Positions 2,785-42,187 of a stretch of DNA of 42,187 bases are shown one piece after another. Location of the stretch: positions 1 through 42,187 of the forward strand of contig JAZDHC010000154.1 of NCBI GenBank assembly GCA_043806395.1, written 5' to 3'. The DNA is from Candidatus Desantisbacteria bacterium (GTDB lineage Bacteria > UBA9089 > CG2-30-40-21). Position numbers and translations under genes: made by a program. Below the pieces are notes generated by a model that worked only from the letters and a program-made list of their open reading frames with translations, was not told where the DNA came from and searched no databases. Every line of letters starts with the position of its first letter. Position 1 is the stretch's first letter.

Positions 2785-2861
2785 ATCTTCTCCGTGTCTC
2801 TGTGGTGAATTTAACTACCTGAGTAGTTAAATTCGGACAGGGATGCCCCCTGTTCCTACCA

Positions 2862-3088: not shown

Positions 3089-3409
3089 TCAAGAAAAATG
3101 TTGGGATAGGCTGGAAGCCTGTGCTACTATCAAATTGCATTGCCTGGCTTTGCGTCCACGGCCAGGCTTATCCTCAAATCCCTGGAAACCATTAGCAAGG
3201 AATTGAGTTACCCAATACCTGACTATGCGGCGATTTAATCCTATTACCCGAGCAGCTTCTGAGATACTTTTGGTCTGTGCTACCAAAAATACAGCCTTTG
3301 CCCGTCGCACTAATCCTGCCTTCATGTTCCTGTTCCTCATGTACCGCTGAAATTCCTGCTCCTGTCCATTTGTAAGTACAATCTGTAATGGTGTCTTTCG
3401 TCCTCGCAT
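3089..3409 (-). pseudogene. IS630-family transposase remnant (N-terminal HTH part only)
   Basis: LVRRAKAVFLVAQTKSISEAARVIGLNRRIVRYWVTQF...GFEDKPGRGRKA is the typical IS630/Tc1 N-terminal HTH region. The ORF ends after 106 aa with no DDE domain. Confidence 0.6.
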
Positions 3410-3434
3410 TTTAATTTTCCTCCCTGATTACAAT

Positions 3435-3487
3435 AAAAAAAAGGCTATGAGTTATACCCTGTCATCCTTGGATATAATCATAGCCTT
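3435..3487 (-). terminator. Rho-independent terminator
   Basis: On the minus strand, aaggctatga ... tcatagcctt forms a 10-bp stem with a partly paired interior, followed by TTTTTTTT. Confidence 0.55.
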
Positions 3488-3535
3488 ATAAGATGTGGGT
3501 ATCCCTTGATACCACATCCATTATTTAGTTGTCAA
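3435..3535 (-). ncRNA. Candidate sigma54-dependent small RNA (~100 nt, two hairpins plus a U-tract)
   Basis: It lies between a near-consensus -24/-12 promoter (3545-3562) and an intrinsic terminator (3441-3487 followed by 8 U). An internal hairpin gatgtggtatc/gatacccacatc spans 3492-3518. No ORF or RBS lies in between. Confidence 0.3.
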
Positions 3536-3544
3536 TAATTTAAT

Positions 3545-3562
3545 AAGCAATATTTGTGCCAG
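3545..3562 (-). promoter_or_regulatory. Sigma54 (-24/-12) promoter
   Basis: The minus strand reads CTGGCACAAATATTGCTT, which is TGGCAC-N5-TTGCT with exact GG-N10-GC spacing. Confidence 0.55.
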
Positions 3563-3688
3563 AATGCAGGGGGAAGGGACAGAGGGGTGCAGAAGGTACA
3601 GAAGGTGCAGAGGGTGCACAAGAAGAACAACCCCCTGACCCCTTCAAAGGGGGAATTTCCATCCCCTACCCTACCAGCGGGGGACATT

Positions 3689-3714
3689 GTAGGGGCGAAC
3701 CTATGTGTTCGCCC
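3689..3714. repeat. REP-like hairpin, family A (GTAGGGGCGAACCTATGTGTTCGCCC)
   Basis: 8-bp stem gggcgaac/gttcgccc. Copies or variants occur at 13371-13474 (x3), 19941-19966, 20083-20145 (pair), 21311-21336 and 42115-42174 (pair). Confidence 0.85.
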
Positions 3715-3766
3715 TCTTGGCCATAATTAATTGCATAGATCGTAAAAAAACTGATTTTGGACACTT

Positions 3767-3925
3767 ATTTCTCATCTCTGCCTGTGAGGAATGTATGCCT
3801 TATTTCTATTGTGTCTAATAATTGGACATAAGATGAGGATGCGCCAGATATGTTTTTAGCTGTAACATGTTATTAATTAATGGATTATGGTAATCTTCCC
3901 TACTGTACAAATATTGGACATAGGC
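3767..3925. promoter_or_regulatory. Putative enhancer (UAS) sites for a sigma54 activator
   Basis: TTGGACA (3767), the near-palindrome TGTCTAATAATTGGACA (3812-3828) and ATTGGACA (about 3914) lie 200-370 bp upstream of the 3545-3562 promoter. The same motif is found upstream of the 22501-22517 promoter. Confidence 0.35.
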
Positions 3926-4032
3926 GTACAACAATCTGTAATCAAGTATGGTGAGGGATGCTGTTACCCCTTGTTTTCATTATAGTTGCGTTGTTTTACG
4001 CTATGTGTGGAAAATGGACACTGCTCGTTTTA

Positions 4033-4417
<385 letters not shown>

Positions 4418-7400
4418 CTACCTTATCACCGCCAATTTACCATACCGTTTGCCCTGCGTATTACTGATCATGTACAGATAGACACCGCTGGCTACAGATT
4501 GTCCATCGCTATTTGTCAGGTCCCACTTTGCCTCTGTTGCCTTTGTGCCATCAACATCCGTGAGGGTTTGGACTAATTCACCGCTTAGGGTAAATATTTT
4601 GATTGTTGCCTTGCCAGAGAAATCAAACCGCATGTGCGAGAGCGTAGTTGGGTTTGGGTATATCTTCAGGTCGGCAAATCCTGGAATGCTTGATTTTTTG
4701 GCAATGCCATCAGCCTTAGCAATAATCTGGAAATGCCTGATATTGGATTCACCATCAATGGCTGATGAGTGATAGGTGCAACCTGTGCCTGCTCGCATAT
4801 CTATGGAAAGGCTTGTTTCTATATCCTTCAGACTTAACCCATACCCGGCTGGCAATTGCTCCTTATCCCAGCTAATGTTTACATCCCCGGAAAGGTTTGT
4901 CCTGATAGCAGCATCCCAGGCTATCACACCATCACCAACCTGTCGCATATCCCAGTCAAATCTGTCAAATATATCCTCCTCTGGATGGGTGAAGTACAGG
5001 CTGACAAATTTACCCTGCGGCTCTGGTGGCTCTGGTCTGTCATTCATATCAAGCCCGATGGATGAATCACGACTTATACCAAATCGAGGACAATAATTTG
5101 CCTTGTCCTCATATCCCCCGGCTGTAATGTGCAACCCAACTTGCCATGTATCAAGGGATACCACAACTGGTGATAACTGAAGGCTATTTGTGGTAGTGCT
5201 ACTGGCTGATATATTCGGCACAATCAACTGGCAATCACTCAATGCCGCAAACCAATATCCCTGCCATGGCTCAAGTCTGTTTGCCAACTGATAATTTCCA
5301 TCCACGAATCCATACAAGACATCCATGACCCAGCCAGAAGCCACTGCTTCCTTTAATCCCTTCCTCACCCCATCCTTTTGCACTGCAACCTTTGACCAAT
5401 CAGGGGTAAAATCAAACGGACAGCCGATCATGTTCCAGCCAGTCTGTAGGGGAATGGTAAATTCAGATGAGGATGATATCGCCCCTTCAGGTAAATCAAG
5501 ATTAATCGTTGCATCGTCCAGTAAGCCAAGCCAGTAGCCTTTGCCCAATCCCAACTTTGAGTAGACTTGAGTGTAGCCTGCCCGATTATATTCATAAATG
5601 TAGTTAGCTTTATCATAGCCCATCATCCCAAATACCGATGACTTGACTGGCATGGAGACCATGTGCCAGCCAGAGGAAAACCGCTGGCTGATTATCGGAG
5701 GCTTCACCGAGAGGCTGAATTGCCTCAAGCCATCGCTGTCAGACTTAAAAACCACAGGGGCAAGAGATCGGACAGGGACGAGTCCCCTGCTTTTGACAGA
5801 GGCAAGCTCTGTCCCTACACTTAGATTCCATGTTTGTCCACTTTCCGTATCCGTAAGCATTATTTCATATCCCTTTGTGTTACCCACAATATTTTCCATT
5901 GTCAGGGTAATCTCTGTCCCGGCTGGCATATTTGTCTGCACCTCAAATAAATACTGGTTATTCCCATACATCTGCCGCATATCCTGCATAAATTTGCCAA
6001 ACACCAGCCCCCACTCCGGATGTGGAAGGTATATCTGGATGTAGTTACCCTGTGATGGTGGTGGTGGCAAAGGCAGGTCATTCCATTGATCAAAGCCATC
6101 TGTTGATCCATAAGAATCAGCACCAAGCTGTATGCTTGCCAGCTGACCACCCACAGAGGCAGTTATGGGAAGCAACCACTGTCCATATTCCTCAATAGGT
6201 GAAATCACTCCATCATCTATGGGTAATATGGGAATACCACCCACAATTGTTTCATCTGAACCATCCACATTGTTGGTGCGATCATCTATGATAATCATGC
6301 CCATATCTGTTTGTTTGCCATTGCTTGCAGTGCCCTGTTTGGGTATTCCACCGGTCTGTATTTTATCGGTATCCATTGGGGTAGCAACTGTCGTACTTGT
6401 GGCAGAACCATTATCCTGGATTCCTGCCTTCGCAGGAATGACATTGGATTCTGTGGCAGAACCGTTATCCTGGATTCCTGCCTTCGCAGGAATGACATTG
6501 GGTTCTGTGGCAGAACCATTATCCTGGATTCCTGCCTTCGCAGGAATGACATTGGGTTCTGTGGTAGAACCATTATCCTGGATTCCTGCCTTCGCAGGAA
6601 TGACATTGGATTCATCCTGGATTCCTGCCTTCGCAGGAATGACATTGGGTTCTGTGGCAGAACCATTATTATTGGGTTCATCCTGGATTCCTGCCTTCGC
6701 AGGAATGACATTGGGTTCTGTGGCAGAACCATTATCCTGGATTCCTGCCTTCGCAGGAATGACATTGGATTCATCCTGGATTCCTGCCTTCGCAGGAATG
6801 ACATTGGGTTCATCCTGGATTCCTGCCTTCGCAGGAATGACATTACCTCTAACCCCTGCCAGCACCTTCAACCCCTGATAATCATCAGCCACAAACACAT
6901 AATCCCCCTGCATTGCCACGCCAAACGCCTTGCCACCTGTCTTATACGAGGATAGGAGGGTTGGCTGTGCCGGGTTGGAGACATCAAGTACGAATAATCC
7001 CGCTGCCTCACAAACCACAAAGGCTACATTGTCCCTGACCATCACATCCCAGGCAAAGCCATTGGTCTTATACGAGCCAGTCTTGACAGGCTTTGCTGGA
7101 TTAGATATGTCAATTATCTGTAATCCACCAGAATAGTCGGCAATATAGGCATATTTCCCAGAAAGCCAGATGTCATAGGCAGAGCCAGGGGTATCATATT
7201 GTCCCACCAATTTTGGACCATACGGATTGGAAACATCTATGACAACAAGTCCGCTACCATCATCTGCCACAAAGGCATACCCATCCCTGACACAAACCCC
7301 TCTGGAAATCCCATCCGTGTTATACTTGCCAATCTTTTTTGGTGTCTGTGGCTTAGAAATATCCACTATCTGTAACCCGGTCGCTCCTGCAGCTACATAG

Positions 7401-10400
7401 GCATAATTTCCAGAGATAGCGATATCATAACAAAAACCATCAATTGCCAGGCTTGAAACAAGAGTAGGCTTGTTGACATTGGATACATCAATCACCATCA
7501 ATCCCTTGGTCCCAGCGGCTGTGTAGGCATAATTGTCCACAACAACTGTATCTCGACAGGAGGAAGCTGTATTGTATTTGCCCGCAAAAACGGGTGAGGC
7601 TGGCTGGCTGATATCCATTATCTGTAGCCCGGCAGTGTCGCAGGACATGTAGGCATAGTTGTTTTTCAGGAATATGCCGTAGGACATGCCATCGGGCTTG
7701 AAACTGGCAATCAGTGTCATTGAACTAACGATTACTGTCCCTGTCCCAACAGCAGTTGCACTCGTTCCAATGGTCCCGTTTCCTGTCTTAACAACAGTTG
7801 CACTTGTCCCAACAACGGTTGTGGAGGTAGTACCTATGGTAATGGTTTTTGTCCCATCAAACACCAGCATCATTGGCTCAGTGGTAAACGACATGACCTT
7901 GCGACCCGTTGACATCATCATGGTCTCTTGATTCTTTGCTGTATTCTGAAGAAACTCCAGCTTGGTATTCTGCCGTTTTCTAAGCGTAAAATATACTGTG
8001 GCAATCGTCCCATTCCCATTGGCACTACCGGTCATCAGTCCGGCGGCATGACTTACAAAGCCGGCAGTATTCTTGATATCAGAGGCAATCTTTGGCAGGA
8101 AGGCATCATCCCCTTTAGTCCGATTAACCGCAAGGACAGTGGGGTCAAAGCCAAGGAAGAAGTCCATGCTGGTTAATGAGGATACACCCTCAACCTTTAT
8201 ATTGACAGGAAATTCTGTATTAACCTTAATTTTATCCATATTTTGGGGCAATTCAAGGAAAAGATGGGCGGATTGGACAGAGACGAGCCCTGTCCCTACG
8301 GCCAACATCGGTGCAAGTTGCACTGTCTGTTGTCCCACTGCCTTGAAATAATTATCCCTTAATATGGCAAAGTCAATTGTATTTACCTTATTATCCCCAT
8401 CAAAATCAGCATTGATATAGCCATTTCTATTCAATGCCCCTGTATCCAACCAGCCAGCATCAGTCTTTGTCTTAAAGTATGCTTCCCGCAGGCGACCAAA
8501 GTCTATGGTATTAACCATAGCGTCACCATCTGCATCACCATTTATCAGGGTCAGGGTGCCAGAGATGGTTACCTGCTGCTGACCAATAACCTCTATACCC
8601 TTCCATATATTTGGTGTGAGACCGGGACCATTTGCACGAATATTTGTTTTGCCCGGTGGAATCCTTTTGAGCAGAAAATAGCCCGCAAGATTGGCAGTTG
8701 TCGTAAGTTTTGTATCTGGTACATCAATATATATTCCAGAATATGATCCAACCCGGGGAATATCAATGGCAACGAATCCGTCCACCCGTCCAAATTCAAC
8801 AATAGATACATTCTTCTGGTCCGTAGCAATAAAGGGAATGTCCCTGGCAACTGAAACAAGTTTTGTCTTTCTGTTTGCATTTTGATTAAAATCAAAGGAC
8901 AATGTAGCATTACCCTTCTTTTTTGCCATAAATATGAACTCGGTAATTGTTCCATTACCCGTGATACTCCCGCTCATTACCCCGGCAGCATAAGAAATGG
9001 CTCCAGTGTCAATCCTTGAGGCTATTTTTTGGATAAAGGCAGTATCCTTAATCCCGATGGATTCAAATAACTCTGGATCAAACGACAGGAATAAATCCAT
9101 GTTTGTCAATCCTACAACCCCCTCTACCCTGATGGTCACGGTAAATGTTTCTCCAACCCCAACCTCACCTGGTGCATCCAACAACAGGGTCGTTTTTACA
9201 CTTGGTGTAAGTGTGGCATAAATATTGGTGGTTTGCTTTGTTTGGACAGAGACAGTACTTGTGAATGGATAATAGTTAACCTTTTGTATGCTCAGGGTAT
9301 GACTGCCGACCATAACATCATTGATGGTCAAGCTGCCTGTGCCAACAAAAATGCCATCAAGGTAAACCTGAGCATCTTTCACATTGGCAGCAACTGAGAT
9401 GAAGCCTGGCGGTGGGACAATGGTTTTGAATGAAAATCGGTAAGCCACTGTCAGCTTATTGCCGGGTAACGAATTATCTCTTGCATCAGTGGAAATGGTG
9501 CAGGCATAGGTGGCATTTTCATTAAATCCATCATTAGTAATGGTCAATTGTGTTTTATCCTCGTTCCACCCAAATACCTTGCCCGAAATATCAGGGGAAA
9601 TGCTGAATGCCTGCTGGACAGCAGTCTGGTTCATGGGCTTGCTGAAGCTGATAATCAGGGGCTTATCCACAGCAATATCCCTTTCTCCATCCTTAATATT
9701 TGCCCCTGTAACTGTGGGCATGATACAATCAATCCGGACATCACCATCACTCATATCATGAGCTGTAGCACTATTTGAATCCGTCACCACAGCCTTTACC
9801 CGCAGGTCAAGGGTATTTGTCCCGGGCACAACCCAGGGGTAAAAAGACAGGGTGCTATCTGTAATAATCGTATTATCAAAGGTTTTGCCTTTATCCATAG
9901 AATAATACAGAGACACCTTATAGGGTGAAACACCACCATTAATATTCCATGTAACATTATTAGATGCTGACCCACTTAAGGTTTCACTCCCATTGGGAAA
10001 TGTAAGGACAACGCTGAGTGTGCCGGGCACAAAATTATAATCCACGGTTACGCTCCCAACAGGAAGCTCTGGAGGCATTGGAATCTCTAATGCTCTCATG
10101 GCATTAGAGCCATCAGTAACGAATGCCAGCCCCTTGTTTATGCTGATATCGTAGCTGTCAGCTATTGGTTTACCACTATTTTCTATATACTTCTGGATGA
10201 GCTTTGGCAGCTTTGGGTTGGAAATATCAATGACTCGCAAGACGAAAACATTGAACAGTGTTGAGTCCTTTTTGTAACTAACCGTATAGGCATAGTTTCC
10301 ACGAACAATGGTTCTATACATTGATTCATCCAACATATCTGCATTGTATTTACCAACAAGTATTGGTGCCTCTGGATTAGAAACATCAATGATTTGAAGC

Positions 10401-13325: not shown

Positions 13326-13364
13326 TGACACACTCCTTAATATTTATTGCTTTAATTAGGATAA

Positions 13365-13480
13365 CCATAAGGGCAGACACATAGGTCTGCCCCTACTTTT
13401 TCACCATAAGGGCAGACACATAGGTCTGCCCCTACTTTTTCACCATAAGGGCAGACACATAGGTCTGCCCCTACTTTTTC
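13365..13480. repeat. Three tandem 39-bp copies of a REP family A unit (...cataagggcagacacataggtctgcccctactttttcac)
   Basis: gggcagac starts at 13371, 13410 and 13449 (period 39). The third copy supplies the last codons and the stop of the NHL gene (…AVKK*, stop at 13471-13473). Confidence 0.9.
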
Positions 13481-15864
13481 ACCGCTATCTTGCATGTCTC
13501 CACCTTTCCACCGGCAGTAAGCACGCAAAAGTAAACCCCATCCGCTACGATATTGCCATCCTTGCTTCTGCCCTGCCATGGGATGTGATGACCACCCAGT
13601 TTTGGCTCCAAATCATCCCCCTTGCCTTCCCATTCCCAGATAAGTTCACCAGCTAAGTTGTAAACCTCCATAAAAGCACTATCCACCTTGTTTGGCAAAT
13701 TGTAGAAAATAACCGTACCATCCGTTGTTGCAGTAGTACTGCCAATATATACCGTATCTCCATCACACGGATCAAATGGATTTGGATAATTATGCAAATC
13801 TACCTCATGGGAAATCACCGGTGCAAGTGGTACAAGCATAACCTCTTCAACCGTACTCACATTATTTGGCTTTATTGAAACAGCCTTCATGGCATAACCT
13901 GTTTTATAACCATCCTTAAATACCATAACAGAGTATGTACCCATTGGTATTCCATCAAGGCTATACCTGCCTGTGTTATCTGTATAACCAGTACTTGCCA
14001 CTACCCCTGTCTCTTGTTGATTTATTTTCACTTGGGCATTATAAACGGGTATACCCTGATTGGTCACCGTACCTGCAACCCCTCCGGTGGGTACAAAATC
14101 AAAGGGCATAAACCGTTGAATTCGGTGATTGCCGGTGTCTGCAATATAGATATTATTCTTATCATCTATGGCTATTCCCTCTGGAGAAAATATCTGTCCT
14201 TGAGCCATTCCCTCCTGCCATGGATAGATACCAAGCTGATTCCCCAGTCTATCCATGATATGCAGGCACCTATTTACTCTATCTAAGATGTAGAGCCGAT
14301 TTAATGAATCCTTTGCAATGCCGCAGGGATACTGGAATTGTCCATCATCCTCATCAAGTCCTGGCTTACCTATTGTCCTGAGTTGTCCACCTTTCTCATC
14401 AAAAACCCTGATCAAATGCTCAGTATGACAAACCACGAAAACCTCTCTTGAAGTAGCACTTGTTTCTATCACCTCTATATCTAATGGCATATTAAGAACA
14501 GCCCATTTGGTAATCATATTCCCGTTCCGATCCAATACCTGTATTCGATTATTAGAGGTGTCAACTATATAGGCATTCCCGATTGAATCAATGGCTATAT
14601 CCTGCGGGTACTTAAATTTACCCTCCCCTGATCCAAGCTCTCCCCAACTGTCAATAAACACCCCGTTATTATTAAAGCGTTGAATGCGACTATTGTAAGA
14701 ATCCGTAATATAGACCCTATTGTTATTATTTCTATCTATGGCAATCCCGGTTGGGGTATCAAACAGCCCTTTCTCAAGCATGGATGACTTACTGCCCCAC
14801 GCAGTAATAAATTTGCCGTCTTGAGTAAACTTCTGAATCCTATGATTATCTTTATCTACAACGAACATATTGCCATTAGAGTCAAAAGCCATATCTACAG
14901 GTGAATTAAATCTTCCCGTTTCAAAGCTGTTTTTACTTAATAAGCTTATAAAATTTCCTTTATTATCAAACCTCTGTATACAATTATTTTTTCTATCTAC
15001 AGCATAAACTGTTCCTTCTTTATTAACAAACAACCCGGCTATATCCCCAAATTGTCCAGCCCTGAACCCTGTCTTACCACCCCATCCACATTTTTTCTGG
15101 AAATCCAGCCCAAAGCCATAGATATATTCATATTTTCCATTCATATCCTCTTTCTTTGCAGTTAGATAGATGGATTGGTTATTATTGGTTGCAATCCCGG
15201 TCAGTGTCCCAAGACTTTCATCCTTCAGGCATACAGATATCATGGTAAAGGTACCCTCAATATATATCTTCTGGATACGATGATTACCTGTATCAACAAC
15301 ATATAACATGAAGTCAGTAGGGTTATAAACAATATCCAAAGGGGCTAAAAACTGTCCTGAGCCTGTCCCTGTCTCCCCTATCTTGCGAATAGACAATCTC
15401 TTGCCATCAAACTCCCAGATACAGCCTTTATCGCTATCAGTCACATATACTAAGCCATTTCTGCCAATTGTTATCCCGCAAGGCTTGCCAATATCCCCCT
15501 TGCCCCACACACCAAAAACGACACCATCTTTGTTTAATCCCAGAACGCACTTAAGATCAGCATCTATCACAAAGATGTTTCCTTTATTATCCGCAGCCAC
15601 ACCAATGGGTTTAGAAAGCATGTCCAGATCATTTCCATAAAACTCCTTCTCCAGCTCACCCTTTGGATTAAACCTCTGCACACATTTTTTGCCTGTATTT
15701 GCCACAAACATATAGCCATCAGTATTCACAGATACATCTGACGGCTTATCAAAATCATACTTATGATATTCCCCAGGGAATTCGGCAGAAAATACAAGAT
15801 CCTTGGCATAAACACTGCCTGTTATTAAACATAATATCAACCCTAACCATAATATCTTTTTCAC
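13471..15864 (-). CDS. Secreted NHL-repeat beta-propeller protein with a carboxypeptidase-regulatory-like domain and a FlgD-Ig/T9SS-type CTD
   Basis: - Signal peptide: MKKILWLGLILCLITGSVYA.
- Many NHL-type blades (…VYVTDSDKGCIWEF, …VVDTGNHRIQKI, …VVDKDNHRIQKF, …ITDSYNSRIQRF, …IVDTSNNRIQVL, …IADTGNHRIQRF).
- GVAGTVTN...TGRYSLDGIPMGTYSVMVFKDGY.
- C-terminus YPNPFDP...DGVYFCVL...KIAVKK.
- GTG start with GGAGG upstream. Confidence 0.85.
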   Translation of the reverse strand: MKKILWLGLILCLITGSVYAKDLVFSAEFPGEYHKYDFDKPSDVSVNTDGYMFVANTGKKCVQRFNPKGELEKEFYGNDLDMLSKPIGVAADNKGNIFVIDADLKCVLGLNKDGVVFGVWGKGDIGKPCGITIGRNGLVYVTDSDKGCIWEFDGKRLSIRKIGETGTGSGQFLAPLDIVYNPTDFMLYVVDTGNHRIQKIYIEGTFTMISVCLKDESLGTLTGIATNNNQSIYLTAKKEDMNGKYEYIYGFGLDFQKKCGWGGKTGFRAGQFGDIAGLFVNKEGTVYAVDRKNNCIQRFDNKGNFISLLSKNSFETGRFNSPVDMAFDSNGNMFVVDKDNHRIQKFTQDGKFITAWGSKSSMLEKGLFDTPTGIAIDRNNNNRVYITDSYNSRIQRFNNNGVFIDSWGELGSGEGKFKYPQDIAIDSIGNAYIVDTSNNRIQVLDRNGNMITKWAVLNMPLDIEVIETSATSREVFVVCHTEHLIRVFDEKGGQLRTIGKPGLDEDDGQFQYPCGIAKDSLNRLYILDRVNRCLHIMDRLGNQLGIYPWQEGMAQGQIFSPEGIAIDDKNNIYIADTGNHRIQRFMPFDFVPTGGVAGTVTNQGIPVYNAQVKINQQETGVVASTGYTDNTGRYSLDGIPMGTYSVMVFKDGYKTGYAMKAVSIKPNNVSTVEEVMLVPLAPVISHEVDLHNYPNPFDPCDGDTVYIGSTTATTDGTVIFYNLPNKVDSAFMEVYNLAGELIWEWEGKGDDLEPKLGGHHIPWQGRSKDGNIVADGVYFCVLTAGGKVETCKIAVKK

Positions 15865-18808: not shown

Positions 18809-19088
18809 TTGTTAAAATCTTGTCTGCGTGGAAGGATTACTTCGTGATTCGTGCCACAAGGCATAAATCACGGTTGTGAGTTATTGATTGACTCAAGGAG
18901 AGTGTTTCATCCTCAAAATATGTAATACAGTATGATAATACATGCAAATACATAAATTGTGCCACTTATAAAGTAATACATGCTTTACCTTCATCCTTCT
19001 GTGTTTCCCTAATTCCCACTTATCAAAGGGGGTTAGGGGGTTGTTCTTTTCTGTACCTTCTGTTTTCCTCTACCTTTAGCCTTCTGCC

Positions 19089-19916: not shown

Positions 19917-19940
19917 TCGAACCTCCTGATATTTTTTATC

Positions 19941-19966
19941 GGGCAGACACATAGGTCTGCCCCTAC
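19941..19966. repeat. REP family A hairpin
   Basis: gggcagacacataggtctgcccctac lies immediately upstream of the 19916 start. Confidence 0.85.
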
Positions 19967-20082
19967 AGTTCACAACTTACAGCTTAGCCAGGCAAGATTC
20001 AGGACCCGTAAGAGCAAGGGAGGGCAAGCCTTACCTTTCCCGAATCCAGCCACATCTAAGCTGTAGGTTGCAAACTGCCATC

Positions 20083-20145
20083 GTAGGGGCGAACCTATGT
20101 GTTCGCCCTCTCAAACACAGGGCGAACACATAGGTTCGCCCCTAC
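20083..20145. repeat. Inverted pair of REP family A elements
   Basis: gtaggggcgaacctatgtgttcgccc (20083-20108) and gggcgaacacataggttcgcccctac (20120-20145) sit directly downstream of the 20153 stop. Confidence 0.85.
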
Positions 20146-20152
20146 CCCATTA

Positions 20153-20827
20153 CTATCCCACTATCGGAATTAATGTAAATGTCAAGGTATTTGAGTATTC
20201 GCCCTCTGTATACCTTGCCAGATTAGAAACACCAAGCTTAAACACTACCAATCTTGGGTCACTGGTGGACATCTTAACCCCAAAAAGGTATTGCGCCTCA
20301 TTGTGTAATCTCAACCATGTGGCTCTTGCCATATTAGAGCCAGTACTTTCAGATGGATATGTTTGAGCTGATGCCTCTGCCCCTTCGAGCTTGTTTAGTA
20401 ACACATAAGTCTTTTCAGTCTGTACGGTCAGATAAGTATCATCCAATCTTAAAACCCCTTGTGGACCTGCTGGCTGGACACCATGGATATAAAGATTGGC
20501 TCCATCCTGAGCATTAGTAAACAGGGTGATTGAAATAGCATCTGCTCTTTCGGCAAACCCCTTACCAATATCTGAATTTGCCGAATTCATGACATCATTA
20601 TTGGCTGAAGCACCGCCATCAGGATAATTAATAACACTGGCTACCGTTAGATTACGGGCATAATCCTCTGGTCCAGGAGTAATTGTCTCCCTCATATCTA
20701 TGCCAACAAGCTCAATTATCTGTGGCACCTTTAACCCTATTTGAGCATCCTCCTGCTGCATGTCCGCTGCATACCCAGAAACAGCTATCATACCTATCAC
20801 TAACACACCTGACAATATTCGTTTCAT
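20153..20827 (-). CDS. Secreted pilin-like protein, paralogue B (224 aa)
   Basis: I moved the start to ATG 20827 (AAGGAGG upstream, signal peptide MKRILSGVLVIGMIAVSGYA). The track's extension overlaps a terminator hairpin. It aligns along its whole length with 21440..22219 (ADMQQEDAQIGL…ETITPGPEDYAR…IGKGFAER…LFTNAQDGA…WLRLHNEAQYLF…ARYTEGEYSNTLTFTLIPIVG). Confidence 0.75.
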   Translation of the reverse strand: MKRILSGVLVIGMIAVSGYAADMQQEDAQIGLKVPQIIELVGIDMRETITPGPEDYARNLTVASVINYPDGGASANNDVMNSANSDIGKGFAERADAISITLFTNAQDGANLYIHGVQPAGPQGVLRLDDTYLTVQTEKTYVLLNKLEGAEASAQTYPSESTGSNMARATWLRLHNEAQYLFGVKMSTSDPRLVVFKLGVSNLARYTEGEYSNTLTFTLIPIVG

Positions 20828-20949: not shown

Positions 20950-21011
20950 AAAAAAAAATCACGAGACCATGAACATGTCAAAACAAAAGACATGTTCATA
21001 ACCTCGTGATT
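20950..21011 (-). terminator. Rho-independent terminator/attenuator T2 in the leader of paralogue B
   Basis: Minus strand: aatcacgagGTTatgaacatgtc - 9-nt loop - gacatgttcatGGTctcgtgatt, giving 9+11 bp of stem, followed by about 7 T. Confidence 0.6.
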
Positions 21012-21048
21012 TTAATAACACGCCGTAGGGGTGACAAGACACTCCTAC

Positions 21049-21160
21049 GGCATACCACATTCATCGAGTAATCATCTTTTGTATACCACATTCATCTTTT
21101 GACTAACTCAATATACCACTATTAAGCCAATCACATTTTTGTATGTAACATTCATCGGTT
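21049..21160. repeat. Four degenerate ~30-bp tandem repeats centred on (G)TATACCACATTCATC
   Basis: Cores lie at 21052-21065, 21083-21096, about 21113-21123 (partial) and 21143-21156 (atgtaacattcatc). They sit between terminators T1 and T2. Confidence 0.75.
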
Positions 21161-21200
21161 TGGCATGATTCACTTTTGAACTATGCCACCATTTTTTAAC

Positions 21201-21260
21201 AAAAAAAATCACGCCCTTTCACAATCCTTTAATTACAGTATGATTTGTGAACGCGTGATT
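21201..21260 (-). terminator. Rho-independent terminator T1 downstream of paralogue A
   Basis: Minus strand: aatcacgcgttcacaaatc - loop - gattgtgaaagggcgtgatt, followed by TTTTTT. It shares the AATCACG stem start with T2. Confidence 0.55.
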
Positions 21261-21439: not shown

Positions 21440-22219
21440 TTATCCAACGATTGGCATAAGGGTGAATGTAAGTGTGTTGGTATATTCGCCCTCTGTGTAT
21501 CTCGCTAAATTGGCAATGCCAAGGTTGATAACTATCAGTCTTGGTGCCGCTGTGGACATCTTTACCTCAAACAGGTGTTGAGCCTGATTGTGGATGCGAA
21601 GCCATGAAGATGCTGCTGTGTCTTTTGCATTAGTGCTAAGCTGGAAATCCAGACCATCAACGATTGAACCACCCATACCATCTCTTGGGTTATCCACAAC
21701 GGGAACAGTATTAGAGGGTGTTTTTGTTCCAGCACTCTCTGCCACTGCCATTGTCGTTGCGTTGGCATATGCACCTTCTAAGTCATTCTGCAAGATGTAA
21801 GTCTTTTCTGTGCAGACTGACACATAGGTATCTTCCAATCTTAAAACATTTGCCTGAGTAGCTGGCTGTGAACCGTGAACGAACAACGCTGCACCATCTT
21901 GAGCATTGGTAAATATTGTCATCTCTAAAGCGGCTGTTCTTTCTGCAAAACCCTTGCCAATACCATCATTGGCATCTGTCGTGACATTAGGGTCTCCTGC
22001 TTGATTACCATCTGGAAAATTTACCACTCTTGTTTTTTGCAGATCCCTTGCATAATCCTCTGGACCTGGTGTAATTGTCTCAGACATATCAATACCAGCC
22101 AACTCAATGAGTTGCAAACAATTCAAACCAATTGATGCATCTTCTTGCTGCATATCTGCTGCCATTGCTACTCCACTTGCTAATGCTACTGCTACTACGC
22201 TAACTAATAACTTCTTCAT
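21440..22219 (-). CDS. Secreted pilin-like protein, paralogue A (259 aa)
   Basis: GAGGAG RBS. Signal peptide MKKLLVSVVAVALASGVAMA. The mature N-terminus ADMQQEDASIGL is shared with paralogue B. The C-terminal strand ARYTEGEYTNTLTFTLMPIVG resembles the terminal strand of chaperone-usher-type subunits. Confidence 0.8.
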   Translation of the reverse strand: MKKLLVSVVAVALASGVAMAADMQQEDASIGLNCLQLIELAGIDMSETITPGPEDYARDLQKTRVVNFPDGNQAGDPNVTTDANDGIGKGFAERTAALEMTIFTNAQDGAALFVHGSQPATQANVLRLEDTYVSVCTEKTYILQNDLEGAYANATTMAVAESAGTKTPSNTVPVVDNPRDGMGGSIVDGLDFQLSTNAKDTAASSWLRIHNQAQHLFEVKMSTAAPRLIVINLGIANLARYTEGEYTNTLTFTLMPIVG

Positions 22220-22500
22220 TTTTTCCTCTCCTCTTTTCCTTTTGGATTCTTTTTAGATTTTGTTGCTTTTTGGGTGTGAGGCATAAAGCCTCAAAGCAAT
22301 TTACTTCTTCTGAGAATCATTGAAATTAGAGGAAAATCCCTTTTTTAAACTATCACCCCCTGTAAATCATATATGTTCATTAAACCCCACATCCACATTA
22401 AGTAGAACAAGCTTCGTCCAATTACTCAAACTAACTTGTTCTACCCGATGAATGTGGTATACATACCGCAATTTTGTTTACATTGTCTTGCCATTCATAT

Positions 22501-22517
22501 AGCAAATTTCATGCCAA
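22501..22517 (-). promoter_or_regulatory. Sigma54 (-24/-12) promoter heading the cluster
   Basis: The minus strand reads TTGGCATGAAATTTGCT, which is TGGCAT-N5-TTGCT with exact GG-N10-GC spacing. It lies about 270 nt upstream of ATG 22219. Confidence 0.55.
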
Positions 22518-22552
22518 AATTAGAAACAGGCAGCTACACATAACTCAACCAA

Positions 22553-22746
22553 TTGCCATTATTGGACTTATCATCTTATCATCTATGTTATCAGGGAATA
22601 TTTTACTATTGAACAGTGTCCAATTATTAGAATGTTCAAAACCAGCAATTTCTGTGAAGTCTACAAGCAGCGTAATCTATAAGTCTAAATTCTACAGGAT
22701 GTTATATGAGAGTGTCCAATTACAGACATGTGTCCAATTATTGGAC
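22553..22746. promoter_or_regulatory. Putative enhancer (UAS) sites: GTCCAAT-N-ATTGGAC palindromes
   Basis: tgccattattggac (22553-22567), tgtccaattattag (about 22617-22631), tgtccaattacagaca (about 22712-22727) and the perfect 7-1-7 palindrome gtccaattattggac (about 22732-22746). They lie 40-230 bp upstream of the sigma54 promoter and next to the bEBP gene. Confidence 0.4.
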
Positions 22747-22779
22747 TTTTGGGCATGGACAGGTGAAAAAAGTTGGTTC

Positions 22780-23008: not shown

Positions 23009-24388
23009 ATGGTTATATTAATGTCGAGCATATCACCCAAGGTATTAAGAAAAAGAAAAAAACATGTGCTTATTGTCCTTATCTCTATCCTATCCATCTT
23101 ATTGCTATTTAATTTGTGGGGCTGGTCTTTTTACCTTCAAGCAAAACACTTTCTGGATGAGGAACTTGGTAAACGACTTATAGCTATTGCAGCAATTACA
23201 TCCTTGCAAGTATCACCAGAATTGATAAAATCAATAAAGGAAAGAACCATAGATGATGCTCAAGCCTTCAATTTCAGAGAGTATTTAGCTACAGTCAATG
23301 AGGAGAACAATCTGGAAAGTGTTTTCATTATTGATAAGGAGAATAATTATATTCTTGATGCTGGATCTGTTCAATTAGAAGGGGGGAAATATCGATGTCT
23401 GAATATTGAAGATACTACTAAAATCCTTGATGCTTCGTTGGGTAAATCCTCTTGTTCCAAGCTATATCGTAATGGAAAGGAGATGTTTAAAACAGGTTTT
23501 GCCCCATTGAAGGATACTTCTGGTGAGGTAATAGCTATACTTGGGGTTGATGCCAGCCCTAAATTTTTGAGGGTTTTATCTAAGATACAGAATACTCTGA
23601 TTTTTTTTGGGATAATCAGCCTTGCTCTGGGTGTTCTCTATGTATTTATTTTGCTTGCAGTTATAAATGGATTTATCTCTACCCAAGAGGCAATATTTCA
23701 TGCAGAAAAGCTTGCCAGTCTTGGCCGTTTGTCAGCCGGGATGGCTCATGATATCAGGAACCCTCTGCAAATAATTAACAGTACCTATGAGTCATTAAGG
23801 AAACGGCATCTTCCTCAGGACATTCAAGATGAGATGTTTGATTATATTCCCGATGAGATAAAAAATTTGAACAAAAAGATCAATAGTTTTCTTTCACAGA
23901 CTAAGGATGCCCCACTTGAGATTGAGTTAAATAATCTAAAGGTATTACTTGACCGTATCATTGAAAGGATGTCTCCAGATTTAGAAAGGGCAAATGTCAG
24001 GATAAATAATCATATCGAATCAGAGATTGGTGAATTTTATTTTGACAAACAACAGATGGAAGGGGTATTCCAGAACCTTATCCGCAATGCTATTGAAGCT
24101 ATGCCTGATGGTGGAGTAATTACCATCAAGGCATATCCTTATAAGGGTGGCAAGCAATTTGTGGTTATTGATGTTTCAGATACTGGATACGGCATTAATC
24201 AAAGGGACCAGAAAAAATTGTTTGAACCATTTTTTACTACCAAAGAACATGGCTATGGATTGGGAATGTCTATTGTATTTAGAATAATTCAGAAACATGG
24301 CGGGGAAATAAAGGTAAAGAGCAAGCCAGGTCAAGGCACAACCTTTACCATCCTTTTGCCATGGAAACAGGAGGAGCTAATTAAATGA
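23009..24388 (+). CDS. Membrane sensor histidine kinase (two TM segments flanking a ~160-aa extracytoplasmic domain; HisKA plus HATPase_c)
   Basis: H-box SAGMAHDIRNPLQ, N-box QNLIRNAIEAM, G-boxes DTGYGI and GYGLGMSIV. ATG 23021 is an alternative start. Confidence 0.9.
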   Translation: MVILMSSISPKVLRKRKKHVLIVLISILSILLLFNLWGWSFYLQAKHFLDEELGKRLIAIAAITSLQVSPELIKSIKERTIDDAQAFNFREYLATVNEENNLESVFIIDKENNYILDAGSVQLEGGKYRCLNIEDTTKILDASLGKSSCSKLYRNGKEMFKTGFAPLKDTSGEVIAILGVDASPKFLRVLSKIQNTLIFFGIISLALGVLYVFILLAVINGFISTQEAIFHAEKLASLGRLSAGMAHDIRNPLQIINSTYESLRKRHLPQDIQDEMFDYIPDEIKNLNKKINSFLSQTKDAPLEIELNNLKVLLDRIIERMSPDLERANVRINNHIESEIGEFYFDKQQMEGVFQNLIRNAIEAMPDGGVITIKAYPYKGGKQFVVIDVSDTGYGINQRDQKKLFEPFFTTKEHGYGLGMSIVFRIIQKHGGEIKVKSKPGQGTTFTILLPWKQEELIK

Positions 24389-25752
24389 ATCTCTTAATCG
24401 TTGATGATGAAAAAAGAATATTGATGCTCTTAAAGCAATCCCTTCAAGACGAGGGGTATGAGGTAGAAACAGCCAATGATGGGTTTGAGGCAATTGAACG
24501 GATTAAAAAGCATGATTTTGATCTGGTCATCACAGATCTAAAGATGAGTGGAAAGGATGGAATAAGTGTTTTAAGAGAAACAAAAGCCCTTTCGCCCCGT
24601 ACAGAGGTAATTATGATAACCGCTTTTTCCTCAAATGAAACAGCGATTACAGCCATGAAAGAGGGTGTTTATGATTATCTTATCAAGCCGTTTGATACCA
24701 ACGAATTAAAACTATTAGTAAAAAGGGTTGAAGAAAAGCAGCAACTAAAAAAAGACAATATAGTGCTTAAGGAGAAATTAGAAACACCCTATAATTTTGA
24801 CAACATTATTGGCAAGAGTGCCAGTATGCACAAAATATTTGACCTGATAAAACAGGTTGCTCCAACCAATACCACGGTATTGATACTTGGCGAAAGCGGT
24901 ACAGGTAAGGAATTGATTTCAAAGGCTATCCATTACAATAGCTCCAGAAGGGATAAGCCCTTTATGGCTGTTCATTGTGCAGCCATGGTGGAGACTCTCT
25001 TAGAAAGCGAGCTGTTTGGTCATGAAAAGGGGGCATTTACTGGTGCACATGTCAGAAAACTCGGACGATTTGAATTGGCAAAGGGTGGTACTATATTTCT
25101 GGATGAAATAGGAGAAGTCGCTCCATCTATTCAGGTGAAGCTCCTTCGTGTACTTCAAGAAAGGGAATTCTTTCGTGTTGGCGGAGAAACAGTGGTAAAA
25201 GCAGATGTTCGGGTTATTACTGCCACCAACAAGGATCTCGAACAGGCTATTAAGGGTGGTGATTTCAGAGAGGATCTGTTTTATCGACTGAATGTTTTCC
25301 CCATTATTCTGCCACCGCTTAAGGATCGACGGGATGATATCCCCGGATTGGTCAGGCATTTTGTCAAGAAATTTGGACAGGAAGGCAAAGAGATACGGAA
25401 TGAGGTTATGCTCTGCTTGATGCAGTATAGATGGACTGGAAACCTTCGAGAGTTAGAGAATATAGTGGAAAGGGCATTGATTATTTCCGGGGATGGACCA
25501 ATTACCCTATCCTGTATCCCAAGTCATATCCAAAATGAACAAGTATCTCCTGTCTCTGTAAATATTCCTGATGAGGGTGTATCTTTAGAAAAGATTGAAC
25601 ATGAATATATTCTTAAGGCTATAGAAAAAGCAAAGGGAAATAAGAGTAAGGCAGCCAAACTACTTGGTATTACCCGACGGGCACTTTATTCAAGGATGGA
25701 AAGGTTTGATAGGGGAGGGGATATTGAAGGAGAAATAGAAGAAGAGGAGTAA
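24385..25752 (+). CDS. Sigma54-dependent response regulator (NtrC/AtoC family bEBP: REC, AAA+, Fis-type HTH)
   Basis: [17 protein letters not shown], Walker [15 protein letters not shown] motif (EKGAFTGAH), C-terminal [19 protein letters not shown]. The start overlaps the kinase stop (ATGA), implying coupling. Confidence 0.92.
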
Positions 25753-35786: not shown

Positions 35787-35928
35787 GGCATGGTTCAAAA
35801 CTGTTCATCACAGGGTTGCAAAGACACAGAGGAAGAACAACCCCCTAACCCCCTTTTTTAAGGGGGAATTAGAGAAATACAGCCATCCACTTGTCCGTTT
35901 AGTTTGTTACCCTGATTTGAACCATGCC
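35787..35928. mobile_element. 142-bp MITE-like element with 13-bp terminal inverted repeats GGCATGGTTCAAA / TTTGAACCATGCC
   Basis: The left 22 nt (ggcatggttcaaaactgttcat) are identical to 25761-25782. The right 28 nt (agtttgttaccctgatttgaaccatgcc) match 27106-27133 with 1 mismatch. A solo left end lies at about 36265-36278. Confidence 0.5.
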
Positions 35929-36255: not shown

Positions 36256-36410
36256 CCAAATTCCGGCATGGTTCAAAAAAAGGGGCAAAAGGGGGAACAC
36301 CATAAAAATATCCTGAAAATCTCTTGTGGTTCTCTGTGTCTCTGTGGTGAATTCCTCTTCATGAGTAGTTACATTTCTTCTTTGCGTCCTTTGCGAAGAA
36401 TCTCCCTCCT

Positions 36411-41798: not shown

Positions 41799-42114
41799 TG
41801 TTTGGAGCCTCCAAGGGCATAGCTATGGCGTAAAAGGAAAGGCACAAAGGCACAAAGAAACCCTCTCCCCAGTAAATTCCCCCTTTGAAGTGGGTTAGGA
41901 GGATGTATTCCCCTCTGGACATATGAAATGGAAGGCTGAAACCATCCACTACGAGGGGTGTCTTTTTTCTCTATGACAATATGATTTTAAGTTGTGAAAG
42001 AGGAAAAAACAGAAAGGATTGAGCATCCCTCATTACAGGGATACTATACTCAGCAAGTCCATAAATTGTGTTTTTCGCTGGTCTTAATCAACGATAGCTG
42101 CGTTGTTCAGATTC

Positions 42115-42174
42115 GTAGGGGCGAACCTATGTGTTCGCCCAGTTATTCGGGTAGACACACAGGTCTACCCCTAC
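42115..42174. repeat. Pair of REP family A elements
   Basis: gtaggggcgaacctatgtgttcgccc (42115-42140) and the variant gggtagacacacaggtctacccctac (42149-42174). Confidence 0.85.
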
Positions 42175-42187
42175 GGTCCATCTTACG

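Follow-up and report, generated by a model that had tools for sequence, protein, structure and literature searches.

What does an enhancer-dependent sigma-54 promoter serve when a transcription terminator, and not an open reading frame (ORF), follows it? The question is raised by an element at positions 3435 to 3925 of a 42,187-nucleotide (nt) stretch of DNA (contig JAZDHC010000154.1 of assembly GCA_043806395.1; here called the window), whose proteins have homologues that carry the name Candidatus Desantisbacteria. The element, read on the minus strand, sits just downstream of a gene for a giant LVIVD-repeat protein and comprises a promoter, here called P2, its upstream activator sites, and a short RNA with two hairpins. 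A sequence-only reading had proposed that P2 drives a free-standing small RNA (sRNA) of about 100 nt. We tentatively prefer, with a probability of roughly 0.45, a different explanation: that the element is a terminator-gated leader of the helix-turn-helix (HTH) gene downstream, dependent on sigma-54 and a bacterial enhancer-binding protein (bEBP), with the ~100-nt RNA as its default product. The choice among explanations rests on anatomy and synteny. Comparisons were made with L001 (GCA_043823455.1), a strain near-identical to the window; with a sister lineage, the CG2_30_40_21 type of Ca. Desantisbacteria (L002 to L007 and L014 to L020); and with further contigs cited by number below.

A predicted sigma-54 promoter and its upstream activator sites

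The features on which the promoter assignment draws are as follows.

3561-3547, minus strand: sigma-54 promoter P2, TGGCAC-N5-TTGC (TGGCACAAATATTGC), with the −24 GG at 3560-3559 and the −12 GC at 3548-3547
3747-3763, minus strand: promoter-proximal half-site AAGTGTCCAAAAT, with TGTCCAA at 3763-3757
3812-3828: proximal upstream activator site, a 17-bp palindrome, TGTCTAATAATTGGACA (TGTCCAATTATTAGACA on the minus strand), matching TGTCCAA-N3-TTGGACA at 13 of 14 positions
3904-3920: distal upstream activator site, a 17-bp palindrome, TGTACAAATATTGGACA (TGTCCAATATTTGTACA on the minus strand), matching the same consensus at 13 of 14 positions
3567-3721: 154-nt block of repeats resembling repetitive extragenic palindromes (REP-like), inserted between the upstream sites and P2
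22516-22502, minus strand: reference promoter P1, TGGCATGAAATTTGC (region 22502-22747), with the same upstream-site motif and near the histidine kinase and bEBP genes
23009-24388: histidine kinase gene, upstream of and divergent from the gene cluster, the partner of the NtrC-family activator
24385-25752, plus strand: NtrC-family enhancer-binding response regulator with receiver, AAA+ sigma-54 interaction, and Fis-type HTH domains

P2 carries GG at −24 and GC at −12 with the correct spacing and, in agreement with the sequence-only reading, has the exact TGGCAC-N5-TTGC consensus, the only such sequence in the 42 kb. The relaxed pattern TGGCAY-N5-TTGC was observed three times in the window where 0.3 occurrences were expected. 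Transcription from P2 is predicted to start at about 3535 ± 3.

The claim that P2 shares its upstream-site motif with the promoter at 22.5 kb, P1, also held. P1 stands before a long minus-strand gene cluster (22219 to 4418) that encodes three lineage-specific paralogues (A, B, and C), a 912-amino-acid (aa) protein, an NHL-repeat protein, a UPF0164 protein, and the 2346-aa LVIVD-repeat protein; the paralogues gave no Pfam match, and “pilin-like” is the name that the sequence-only reading gave them. Palindromes matching the consensus at 13 or more of 14 positions occur three times within the window, against 0.01 expected, and the third (22731-22747) lies upstream of P1. Measured from the center of each site to the −24 GG, the half-site, proximal site, and distal site now lie 195, 260, and 352 nt from P2 because of the 154-nt REP-like insertion, the usual range for bEBP sites being roughly 80 to 200 bp; with the block removed, the distances become 41, 106, and 198 nt. 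The corresponding values are 45, 110, 206, and 224 nt at P1 and 38, 104, and 184 nt in L013, which has no REP-like block at this point. Spacing shared among P1, P2, and L013 is hard to obtain by chance and points to an ancestral enhancer-dependent promoter. The block itself could not be aligned with L002 (45% identity), and copies of it occur within the window at 18999-19048, 20079-20111, 35833-35882, and 42111-42143. The distal palindrome is perfect in L002 (TGTCCAATATTTGGACA) and is present also in L009, L012, L013, L021, and L022, and the proximal palindrome is perfect in L002 and kept in all relatives. Judged by consensus, sites, and geometry, we conclude that P2 is a genuine sigma-54 promoter, predicted to belong to the same regulon as the pilin-like/LVIVD surface-protein operon. 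The NtrC-family regulator encoded beside P1 is presumed, from the position of the upstream sites at the divergent 22.5-kb promoter, to activate both promoters. No rpoN gene lies within the 42-kb window.

A predicted terminated transcript with conserved stems

Two structures follow P2, at the positions that the sequence-only reading had given them.

3519-3491, minus strand: hairpin 1, GGAUGUGGUAUC-AAGG-GAUACCCACAUCU, −13.8 kcal/mol
3433-3487, minus strand: intrinsic terminator with an 18-bp interrupted stem, a 10-nt loop (AAGGAUGACA), and a U8 tract

The second hairpin and its U tract (3487-3435) have the anatomy of a Rho-independent terminator, in that a stable stem-loop (3487-3441, −21.3 kcal/mol) is followed directly by a run of eight T residues (3442-3435); a simple terminator scanner missed it because the loop is 10 nt long. 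The 105-nt RNA as a whole folds at −36.1 kcal/mol (z = −5.8), and none of 200 shuffled sequences was equally stable. Between P2 and the terminator, inspection by eye found no ORF with a plausible ribosome-binding site (RBS), the frames being only 6 to 11 codons long, and here too the sequence-only reading was borne out.

An intact promoter with both hairpins was found only in the window lineage and in the L002-type lineage. Between the two, identity is 74.6% over the 3′ coding part of the LVIVD gene, 81.5% in the upstream-site region, 94.6% (35/37) from promoter to start site, 95.7% (90/94) over the transcript from the hairpins to U8, 76% from the U tract to the ATG, and 90.8% in the HTH coding region. 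The promoter is kept in L002-type contigs as TGGCATAAATATTGC (TGGCAT-N5-TTGC). The four differences among 94 aligned transcript positions compare with a divergence of 18.5% in neighboring intergenic DNA (P = 4e-5). Two of them fall in the single-stranded 5′ tail, the least conserved part of the transcript, and two in bulges; a bulged C that is U in L002 is the only change in hairpin 1, and a C-to-U change in a bulge is likewise the only one in the terminator. Both indels are also unpaired, and the linker between the hairpins has an 11-nt insertion in L002. By contrast, none of the 58 paired positions changed, and both loops are identical. Because no paired position changed against the divergence of the neighborhood, both stems are under selection, and this comparison leads us to conclude that purifying selection acts on the structured transcript and its terminator.

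The module is also confined to one place. A 22-mer from the terminator matched four metagenome contigs, all at the syntenic site and all from L002-type organisms; a 21-mer from hairpin 1 had no match among GTDB species representatives; and a protein-anchored genome scan returned only L010 and L022 again. In every metagenome match the module is single copy at the syntenic site. A dispersed REP element or miniature inverted-repeat transposable element (MITE) was considered as its source and was ruled out by these single syntenic copies and by the presence, within the window, of only one distant paralogue (21065-20954).

More distant relatives differ. L013 has a homologous promoter (AAGGCACGCATTGCTT) in which the −24/−12 spacing is 2 nt too short, and it retains the TGGATGTGGT motif, with no hairpin or terminator before the HTH RBS. 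In L009/L010/L011, L012, L021, and L022, the half-site runs to the HTH RBS without a sigma-54 promoter or hairpins. A promoter fused directly to a coding gene in related genomes, with the hairpins unconserved, had been named as counterevidence to an sRNA; L013 goes some way toward this, as its defective promoter leads into the HTH gene with no terminator, and so do the lineages that have the sites and the HTH gene but neither promoter nor hairpins.

The terminator precedes the RBS of a conserved HTH gene

The gene that follows is the following.

3409-3089, minus strand: orfA-like HTH gene, 106 aa, with its ATG at 3409 and a GGGAGG RBS at 3424-3419

The terminator thus separates P2 from a conserved gene read in the same direction, whose RBS lies 11 to 16 nt, and whose ATG lies 25 nt, after the U tract. 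The sequence-only reading had taken this gene for a remnant of the insertion sequence (IS) IS630, which it is not. The ORF matches Pfam HTH_28/23/29 and, like IS630 orfA, the N-terminal HTH of the IS630 profile (NCBIfam NF033545), ends where orfA ends (GRGRK), and is homologous to orfA of split IS630 elements, an intact relative with orfA and a DDE_3 orfB being present in L023 to L026. Unlike IS630 elements, the locus contains no DDE ORF, holds a fixed chromosomal position, and is under strong purifying selection. The ratio of nonsynonymous to synonymous substitution rates (dN/dS) is 0.02 to 0.27; window and L002 differ by 22 synonymous and 2 nonsynonymous changes, with about 39% of synonymous sites differing; and the ORF ends right after GRGRK in all eight lineages (the window, L002, L008 to L013, L021, and L022), in which its locus is fixed. 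A fixed locus across lineages together with strong purifying selection argues that the gene has been domesticated and is neither mobile nor decaying, and we conclude that the HTH gene, by its pattern of substitution, is a domesticated and presumably expressed transposase DNA-binding domain. No significant relative of the HTH protein was found among solved structures.

The gene is syntenic with the upstream sites. Seven informative lineages, including L002, L009/L010/L011, L012, L013, L021, and L022, have the HTH ORF after the palindromes. This ORF also follows the LVIVD gene wherever contigs were long enough (L002, L009/L010, and L012), and the incomplete ORFs upstream in L013 and L022 fit the same order. 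L008 was dropped as a further case of an HTH gene lacking the hairpins, because its contig begins inside a MITE just upstream of the RBS and is uninformative. As other lineages have the sites and the HTH gene without the promoter, what is conserved together with the upstream sites is the HTH gene. Between terminator and RBS no convincing alternative promoter was found; the 3′ arm of the terminator contains TATAAT in L002 and TATAAC in the window, without an acceptable −35 element.

A 13-nt inverted pair, AAGTGTCCAAAAT, flanks the HTH gene (window 3752-3764, minus strand; L001 ~8502-8514; L002 2438/3439; L009 5928/7967), and in L009 both copies share the same A-to-G change. Before the next pilin-like paralogue stands a third sigma-54 promoter (TTCTGGCACrGTAGTTGC), whose GG is 32 nt downstream of the right copy and which has no palindromic upstream sites of its own within 460 nt. 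The pair may be transposon-end-derived binding sites for the HTH protein.

A proposed terminator-gated leader

One way in which these parts could work together is as a gated leader. The phosphorylated NtrC-family activator (24385-25752) would bind the two TGTCCAA-N3-TTGGACA palindromes and the proximal half-site and would loop to a sigma-54 holoenzyme at 3561-3547, with transcription starting near 3535. The nascent RNA would fold the 5′ hairpin with its cluster-specific GUGGUAU/AUACCAC motif, and the polymerase would next meet the strong intrinsic terminator ending at about 3435, with an RNA of ~100 nt as the default product. Read-through, either by leakage or by means of a factor recognizing the motif hairpin, would transcribe the IS630-orfA-derived HTH gene. 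The element would in this way be a terminator-gated 5′ leader that ties the activity of the activator to a limited expression of the HTH protein. The sequence-only reading had offered, as its own alternative, the orphaned promoter and leader of a gene destroyed by an IS insertion; that alternative comes nearer to what we propose, but the leader is not orphaned and runs into a conserved HTH gene.

Several observations weigh against a gated leader. Constrained folding with the 3′ terminator arm blocked yielded no antiterminator or riboswitch-like alternative fold: when the terminator was forbidden, only hairpin 1 formed (−15.3 versus −36.1 kcal/mol), and no helix competed for the 5′ terminator arm. 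The mutually exclusive terminator and antiterminator folds of an attenuator are therefore missing, and regulated read-through would need some added factor; no antiterminator protein gene was identified within the window. Moreover, most polymerases should stop at a U8 terminator of −21 kcal/mol, so that the short RNA would predominate. Four lineages keep the HTH gene without P2 or the terminator, and L013 keeps it with a vestigial promoter, and since this gene persists elsewhere without the module, the link between promoter and HTH gene is not obligatory. Finally, because only two lineages carry the module, no covariation is available to support it.

A shared stem motif and the possibility of an sRNA

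The short RNA could instead be the functional product itself. This possibility turns on a motif that recurs in the surface-protein operon, for which two further features are needed.

20950-21260 (core 20950-21160), minus strand: A-B cis-element, with three GATGAATGTGGTAT copies, a hairpin, and a U9 terminator; found as a covariance-model match
22385-22490, minus strand: leader of paralogue A, a nested hairpin (L018 3745-3850, L029 4740-4850; z = −6.7 to −7.6)

The 5′ arm of hairpin 1, AAUGGAUGUGGUAU, is a copy, at 12 of 14 positions, of the cluster motif GAUGAAUGUGGUAU (GATGAATGTGGTAT). This 14-mer occurs exactly three times in the window, twice in sense orientation in the A-B intergenic region and once as its reverse complement in the paralogue A leader; over a longer span of 17 nt the motif does not vary in L018 or L029. 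A covariance model based on the candidate RNA, the kind of check that the sequence-only reading had suggested, matched a second place, the A-B region, at 23 bits (E of ~0.006 to 0.01). There a copy of the motif serves as the 5′ arm of a hairpin and is followed by a linker and the U9 terminator, upstream of paralogue B, while another terminator, 3′ of paralogue A, precedes the element. The A-B element is conserved in L018 (5100-5430) and L029 (5950-6375), and its 3′ part, the motif hairpin with the second terminator, folds with z = −9.0. On this predicted structure, the element may act as an attenuator within the operon or be an independent sRNA. Direct alignment of P1 and its leader with P2 and the RNA gave little similarity beyond the promoter, so the signal of intra-operon paralogy consists of the motif and the covariance-model match.

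A free-standing, trans-acting sRNA dependent on sigma-54 and a bEBP would either base-pair, for instance with the invariant AUACCACAUUCAUC in the leader of paralogue A, or use its AAGG/AAGGAUG loops to bind a protein. Consistent with such a role, the terminator is strong and constitutive with no antiterminator fold, promoter and RNA show higher conservation than the coding sequence beside them, and both loops are the same in the two lineages. The 9-nt match to the paralogue A leader in the sequence-only reading is real and in fact amounts to 13 bp of complementarity, including one G-U, to an element invariant in the window, L018, and L029; an A-to-G change in L002 preserves the pairing as G-U. 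Yet the match belongs to a repeated and internally paired motif. The paralogue A leader holds an invariant 17-nt sequence, UGUAUACCACAUUCAUC, exactly complementary to the motif copies of the A-B element and locked in a very stable conserved stem, and the complementary segment of the candidate RNA likewise lies inside hairpin 1. Between the candidate RNA and the operon copies, the change in the motif is matched in its own 3′ arm (A-U to G-C), and since motif and arm changed together, intramolecular pairing is probably the selected feature; the motif is paired intramolecularly wherever it is present. Complementarity to the paralogue A leader is thus, on sequence comparison, better explained by a shared stem-building cis-motif than by a seed-target pair.

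The single-stranded parts of the RNA offer no better candidate for a seed. In every L002-type contig a 190-nt MITE, with terminal inverted repeats GTAACTACTCA and an ATTGACA target duplication, sits exactly at the predicted start site and splits the already variable 5′ tail from the promoter, so that this tail is dispensable or altered in the L002 type. The candidate seed and the leader site both being in stems, no conserved single-stranded seed was found, and the base-pairing sRNA of the sequence-only reading did not hold up in that form. Target prediction, which it had also suggested, was carried out with RNAduplex against 23 gene 5′ regions with shuffled controls and gave no outlier beyond trivial self-overlap; the duplex score of paralogue A was reached by 15 of 100 shuffles, RNAduplex giving unrealistically long duplexes. 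A 15-nt perfect match between the top of hairpin 1 and LVIVD mRNA (5148-5162) was set aside as chance, as it is absent from L002 and also from L001, which has an identical RNA. The terminator-loop complement TGTCATCCTTGG was not enriched. Rfam returned no match at gathering thresholds, the best permissive one being LhrC (19 bits versus a threshold of 110 bits, E = 1.1), and gave no membership in Qrr or another family. Inspection by eye found no ANTAR-type dual hexaloop in the RNA, and CsrA-like sequestration by three ANGGAN-like motifs is speculative, their count being not above chance. With the module limited to two close lineages as well, we regard a trans-acting sRNA as unlikely, though it is the foremost of the alternatives.

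Other explanations

P2 and hairpin 1 could also be a relic with an insulating role: a diverged paralogue of the pilin-gene promoter and leader, whose RNA has no function and whose terminator keeps transcription out of an HTH gene with its own promoter. The HTH gene persists in five other lineages in which the promoter is lost or has defective spacing, the region tolerates REP and MITE insertions, and a weak sigma-70 promoter could make use of the TATAAT/TATAAC within the 3′ terminator arm. No acceptable −35 accompanies that TATAAT, however, and the promoter, both hairpins, and the U tract are kept at 95 to 96% while synonymous sites differ by ~39%; a dead promoter would not be kept so. A relic therefore seems rather improbable.

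A wider scheme would join several of the elements above into a Desantisbacteria-specific riboregulatory system. In it, the GAUGAAUGUGGUAU/AUACCACAUUCAUC stems in the paralogue A leader, the two-terminator A-B element, and the sigma-54-driven RNA would recruit a dedicated antitermination or RNA-binding factor, or pair in trans, and would set the ratio of the major subunit to the giant surface proteins; they would also gate the domesticated IS630 orfA HTH protein, whose transposon-end-like sites flank it and adjoin the next sigma-54 promoter. We offer this scheme as a long shot.

Lastly, it is very improbable that the hairpins belong to an IS630-type element as its structured left end, acting as a read-through barrier before the transposase with a fortuitous sigma-54 match, for although the HTH ORF is IS630-orfA-like, a 13-nt inverted pair flanks it, and the left end of the intact relative contains GTGTCCAATT, the gene is fixed at one locus in all lineages under purifying selection and with no DDE ORF, the hairpin module is single copy and does not occur with other orfA homologues, among them the intact IS of L023 to L026, and the promoter geometry matches P1 too well for chance.

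Comparison with known systems

Terminator-containing leaders are familiar as transcription attenuators and from factor-dependent or processive antitermination, as in RAT/LicT, HutP, and RfaH/LoaP with leader elements. As in those leaders, a promoter is here followed by a motif-hairpin leader and an intrinsic terminator right before an RBS, and a similar module recurs in a long surface-protein operon. Unlike in classical attenuators, there is no overlapping antiterminator fold, the motif hairpin does not overlap the terminator, and L002 tolerates its 11-nt insertion between the two. To our knowledge, sigma-54-driven attenuators are not a described class.

The Qrr sRNAs of Vibrio depend on LuxO and sigma-54 (see PMC4878744). 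The candidate resembles them in the predicted combination of an NtrC-family regulator at upstream sites with a sigma-54 promoter and in an RNA of ~100 nt with stem-loops and a Rho-independent terminator. It differs in having no sequence or structure similarity to them by Rfam, in abutting the RBS of a conserved gene, and in being confined to two lineages. Moreover, the single-stranded seed of Qrr RNAs is highly conserved, and these RNAs usually come as several paralogues, whereas the single-stranded part of the candidate RNA is its least conserved. CrcZ (CbrB/sigma-54), GlmY (GlrR/sigma-54), and NrsZ (NtrC/sigma-54) are sRNAs that sequester proteins or act by base pairing (see PMC8871633 and PMC3844500). 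Like them, the candidate is a noncoding transcript under predicted sigma-54/bEBP control near regulated or regulatory genes; its loop-repeated AAGG/AAGGAUG motifs recall theirs in a suggestive way only, as their count is not above chance, and it is much shorter than CrcZ.

As sigma-54-dependent sRNAs and terminator leaders are both well known, and the element occurs in two close lineages, a specialist should find it plausible rather than surprising. If P2 and its RNA turn out to work as predicted, the candidate phylum Desantisbacteria would gain its first described regulatory RNA element, and enhancer-dependent sigma-54 transcription a further case in which it serves a noncoding or leader RNA and not a protein directly. 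The element would tie together a two-component activator, a lineage-specific cluster of pilin-like and giant LVIVD surface proteins, and a domesticated transposase DNA-binding domain, and the wiring proposed here is concrete and testable for an uncultured organism.

Neighboring genes and repeats

LVIVD homologues in related contigs have a weak or faint match to Por_Secre_tail. The cluster of the sister lineage in L018 is flanked (1-2927, versus window 23009-25752) by hprK, a rapZ-like gene, and pheA, and not by the histidine kinase and bEBP pair; the activator genes are therefore not always beside the regulon. Beyond the AAA-ATPase gene lies FliM in the window, and in L001 a 151-aa ORF and then the next pilin-like gene.

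In L021 (470-545) the leader of the HTH gene contains a hairpin, AAAGTAGAACAGGC...GCTTGCTCTACTTT, similar to the inner one in the leader of paralogue A (GGGTAGAACAAG...CTTGTTCTAC). The likeness suggests that pilin-gene leaders could be the origin of HTH leaders.

The LVIVD stop is followed at once by ~390 nt of short tandem repeats with a 7-nt unit (window 4026-4417), in which GAGTTGR and then its complement CAACTCY form a giant inverted array that differs in copy number in L001 and is absent from L002. Within the LVIVD gene (6295-6878), tandem coding repeats (NVIPAKAGIQD...) are built from a REP-like DNA unit and create long spurious ORFs in other frames. REP-like palindromes (GGGGCAGACCTATGTGTCTGCCCC or a GCGAAC variant) and a GGGGGTTAGGGGGTTGTTCTT element occur in many intergenic regions (3685-3717, 13364-13483, 19934-20154, and 42111-42183), and elements of these types also precede the HTH RBS in L008, L009, L013, and L022. 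The MITE family, with termini GTAACTACTCA...TGAGTAGTTAC, is represented in L002 (2661-2860), at all L002-type loci, and in the window (2788-2833 and 36330-36375); the target duplication of the L002 copy at the predicted P2 start reads (C)ATTGACA.

A sigma-54-like match, TGGCAAGGGTTTTGC, also occurs inside the coding sequence of several pilin-like paralogues (window 21945-21959, minus strand; L001 9211; L005 1230; L013 2499), where it is probably conserved for coding reasons rather than as an internal promoter.

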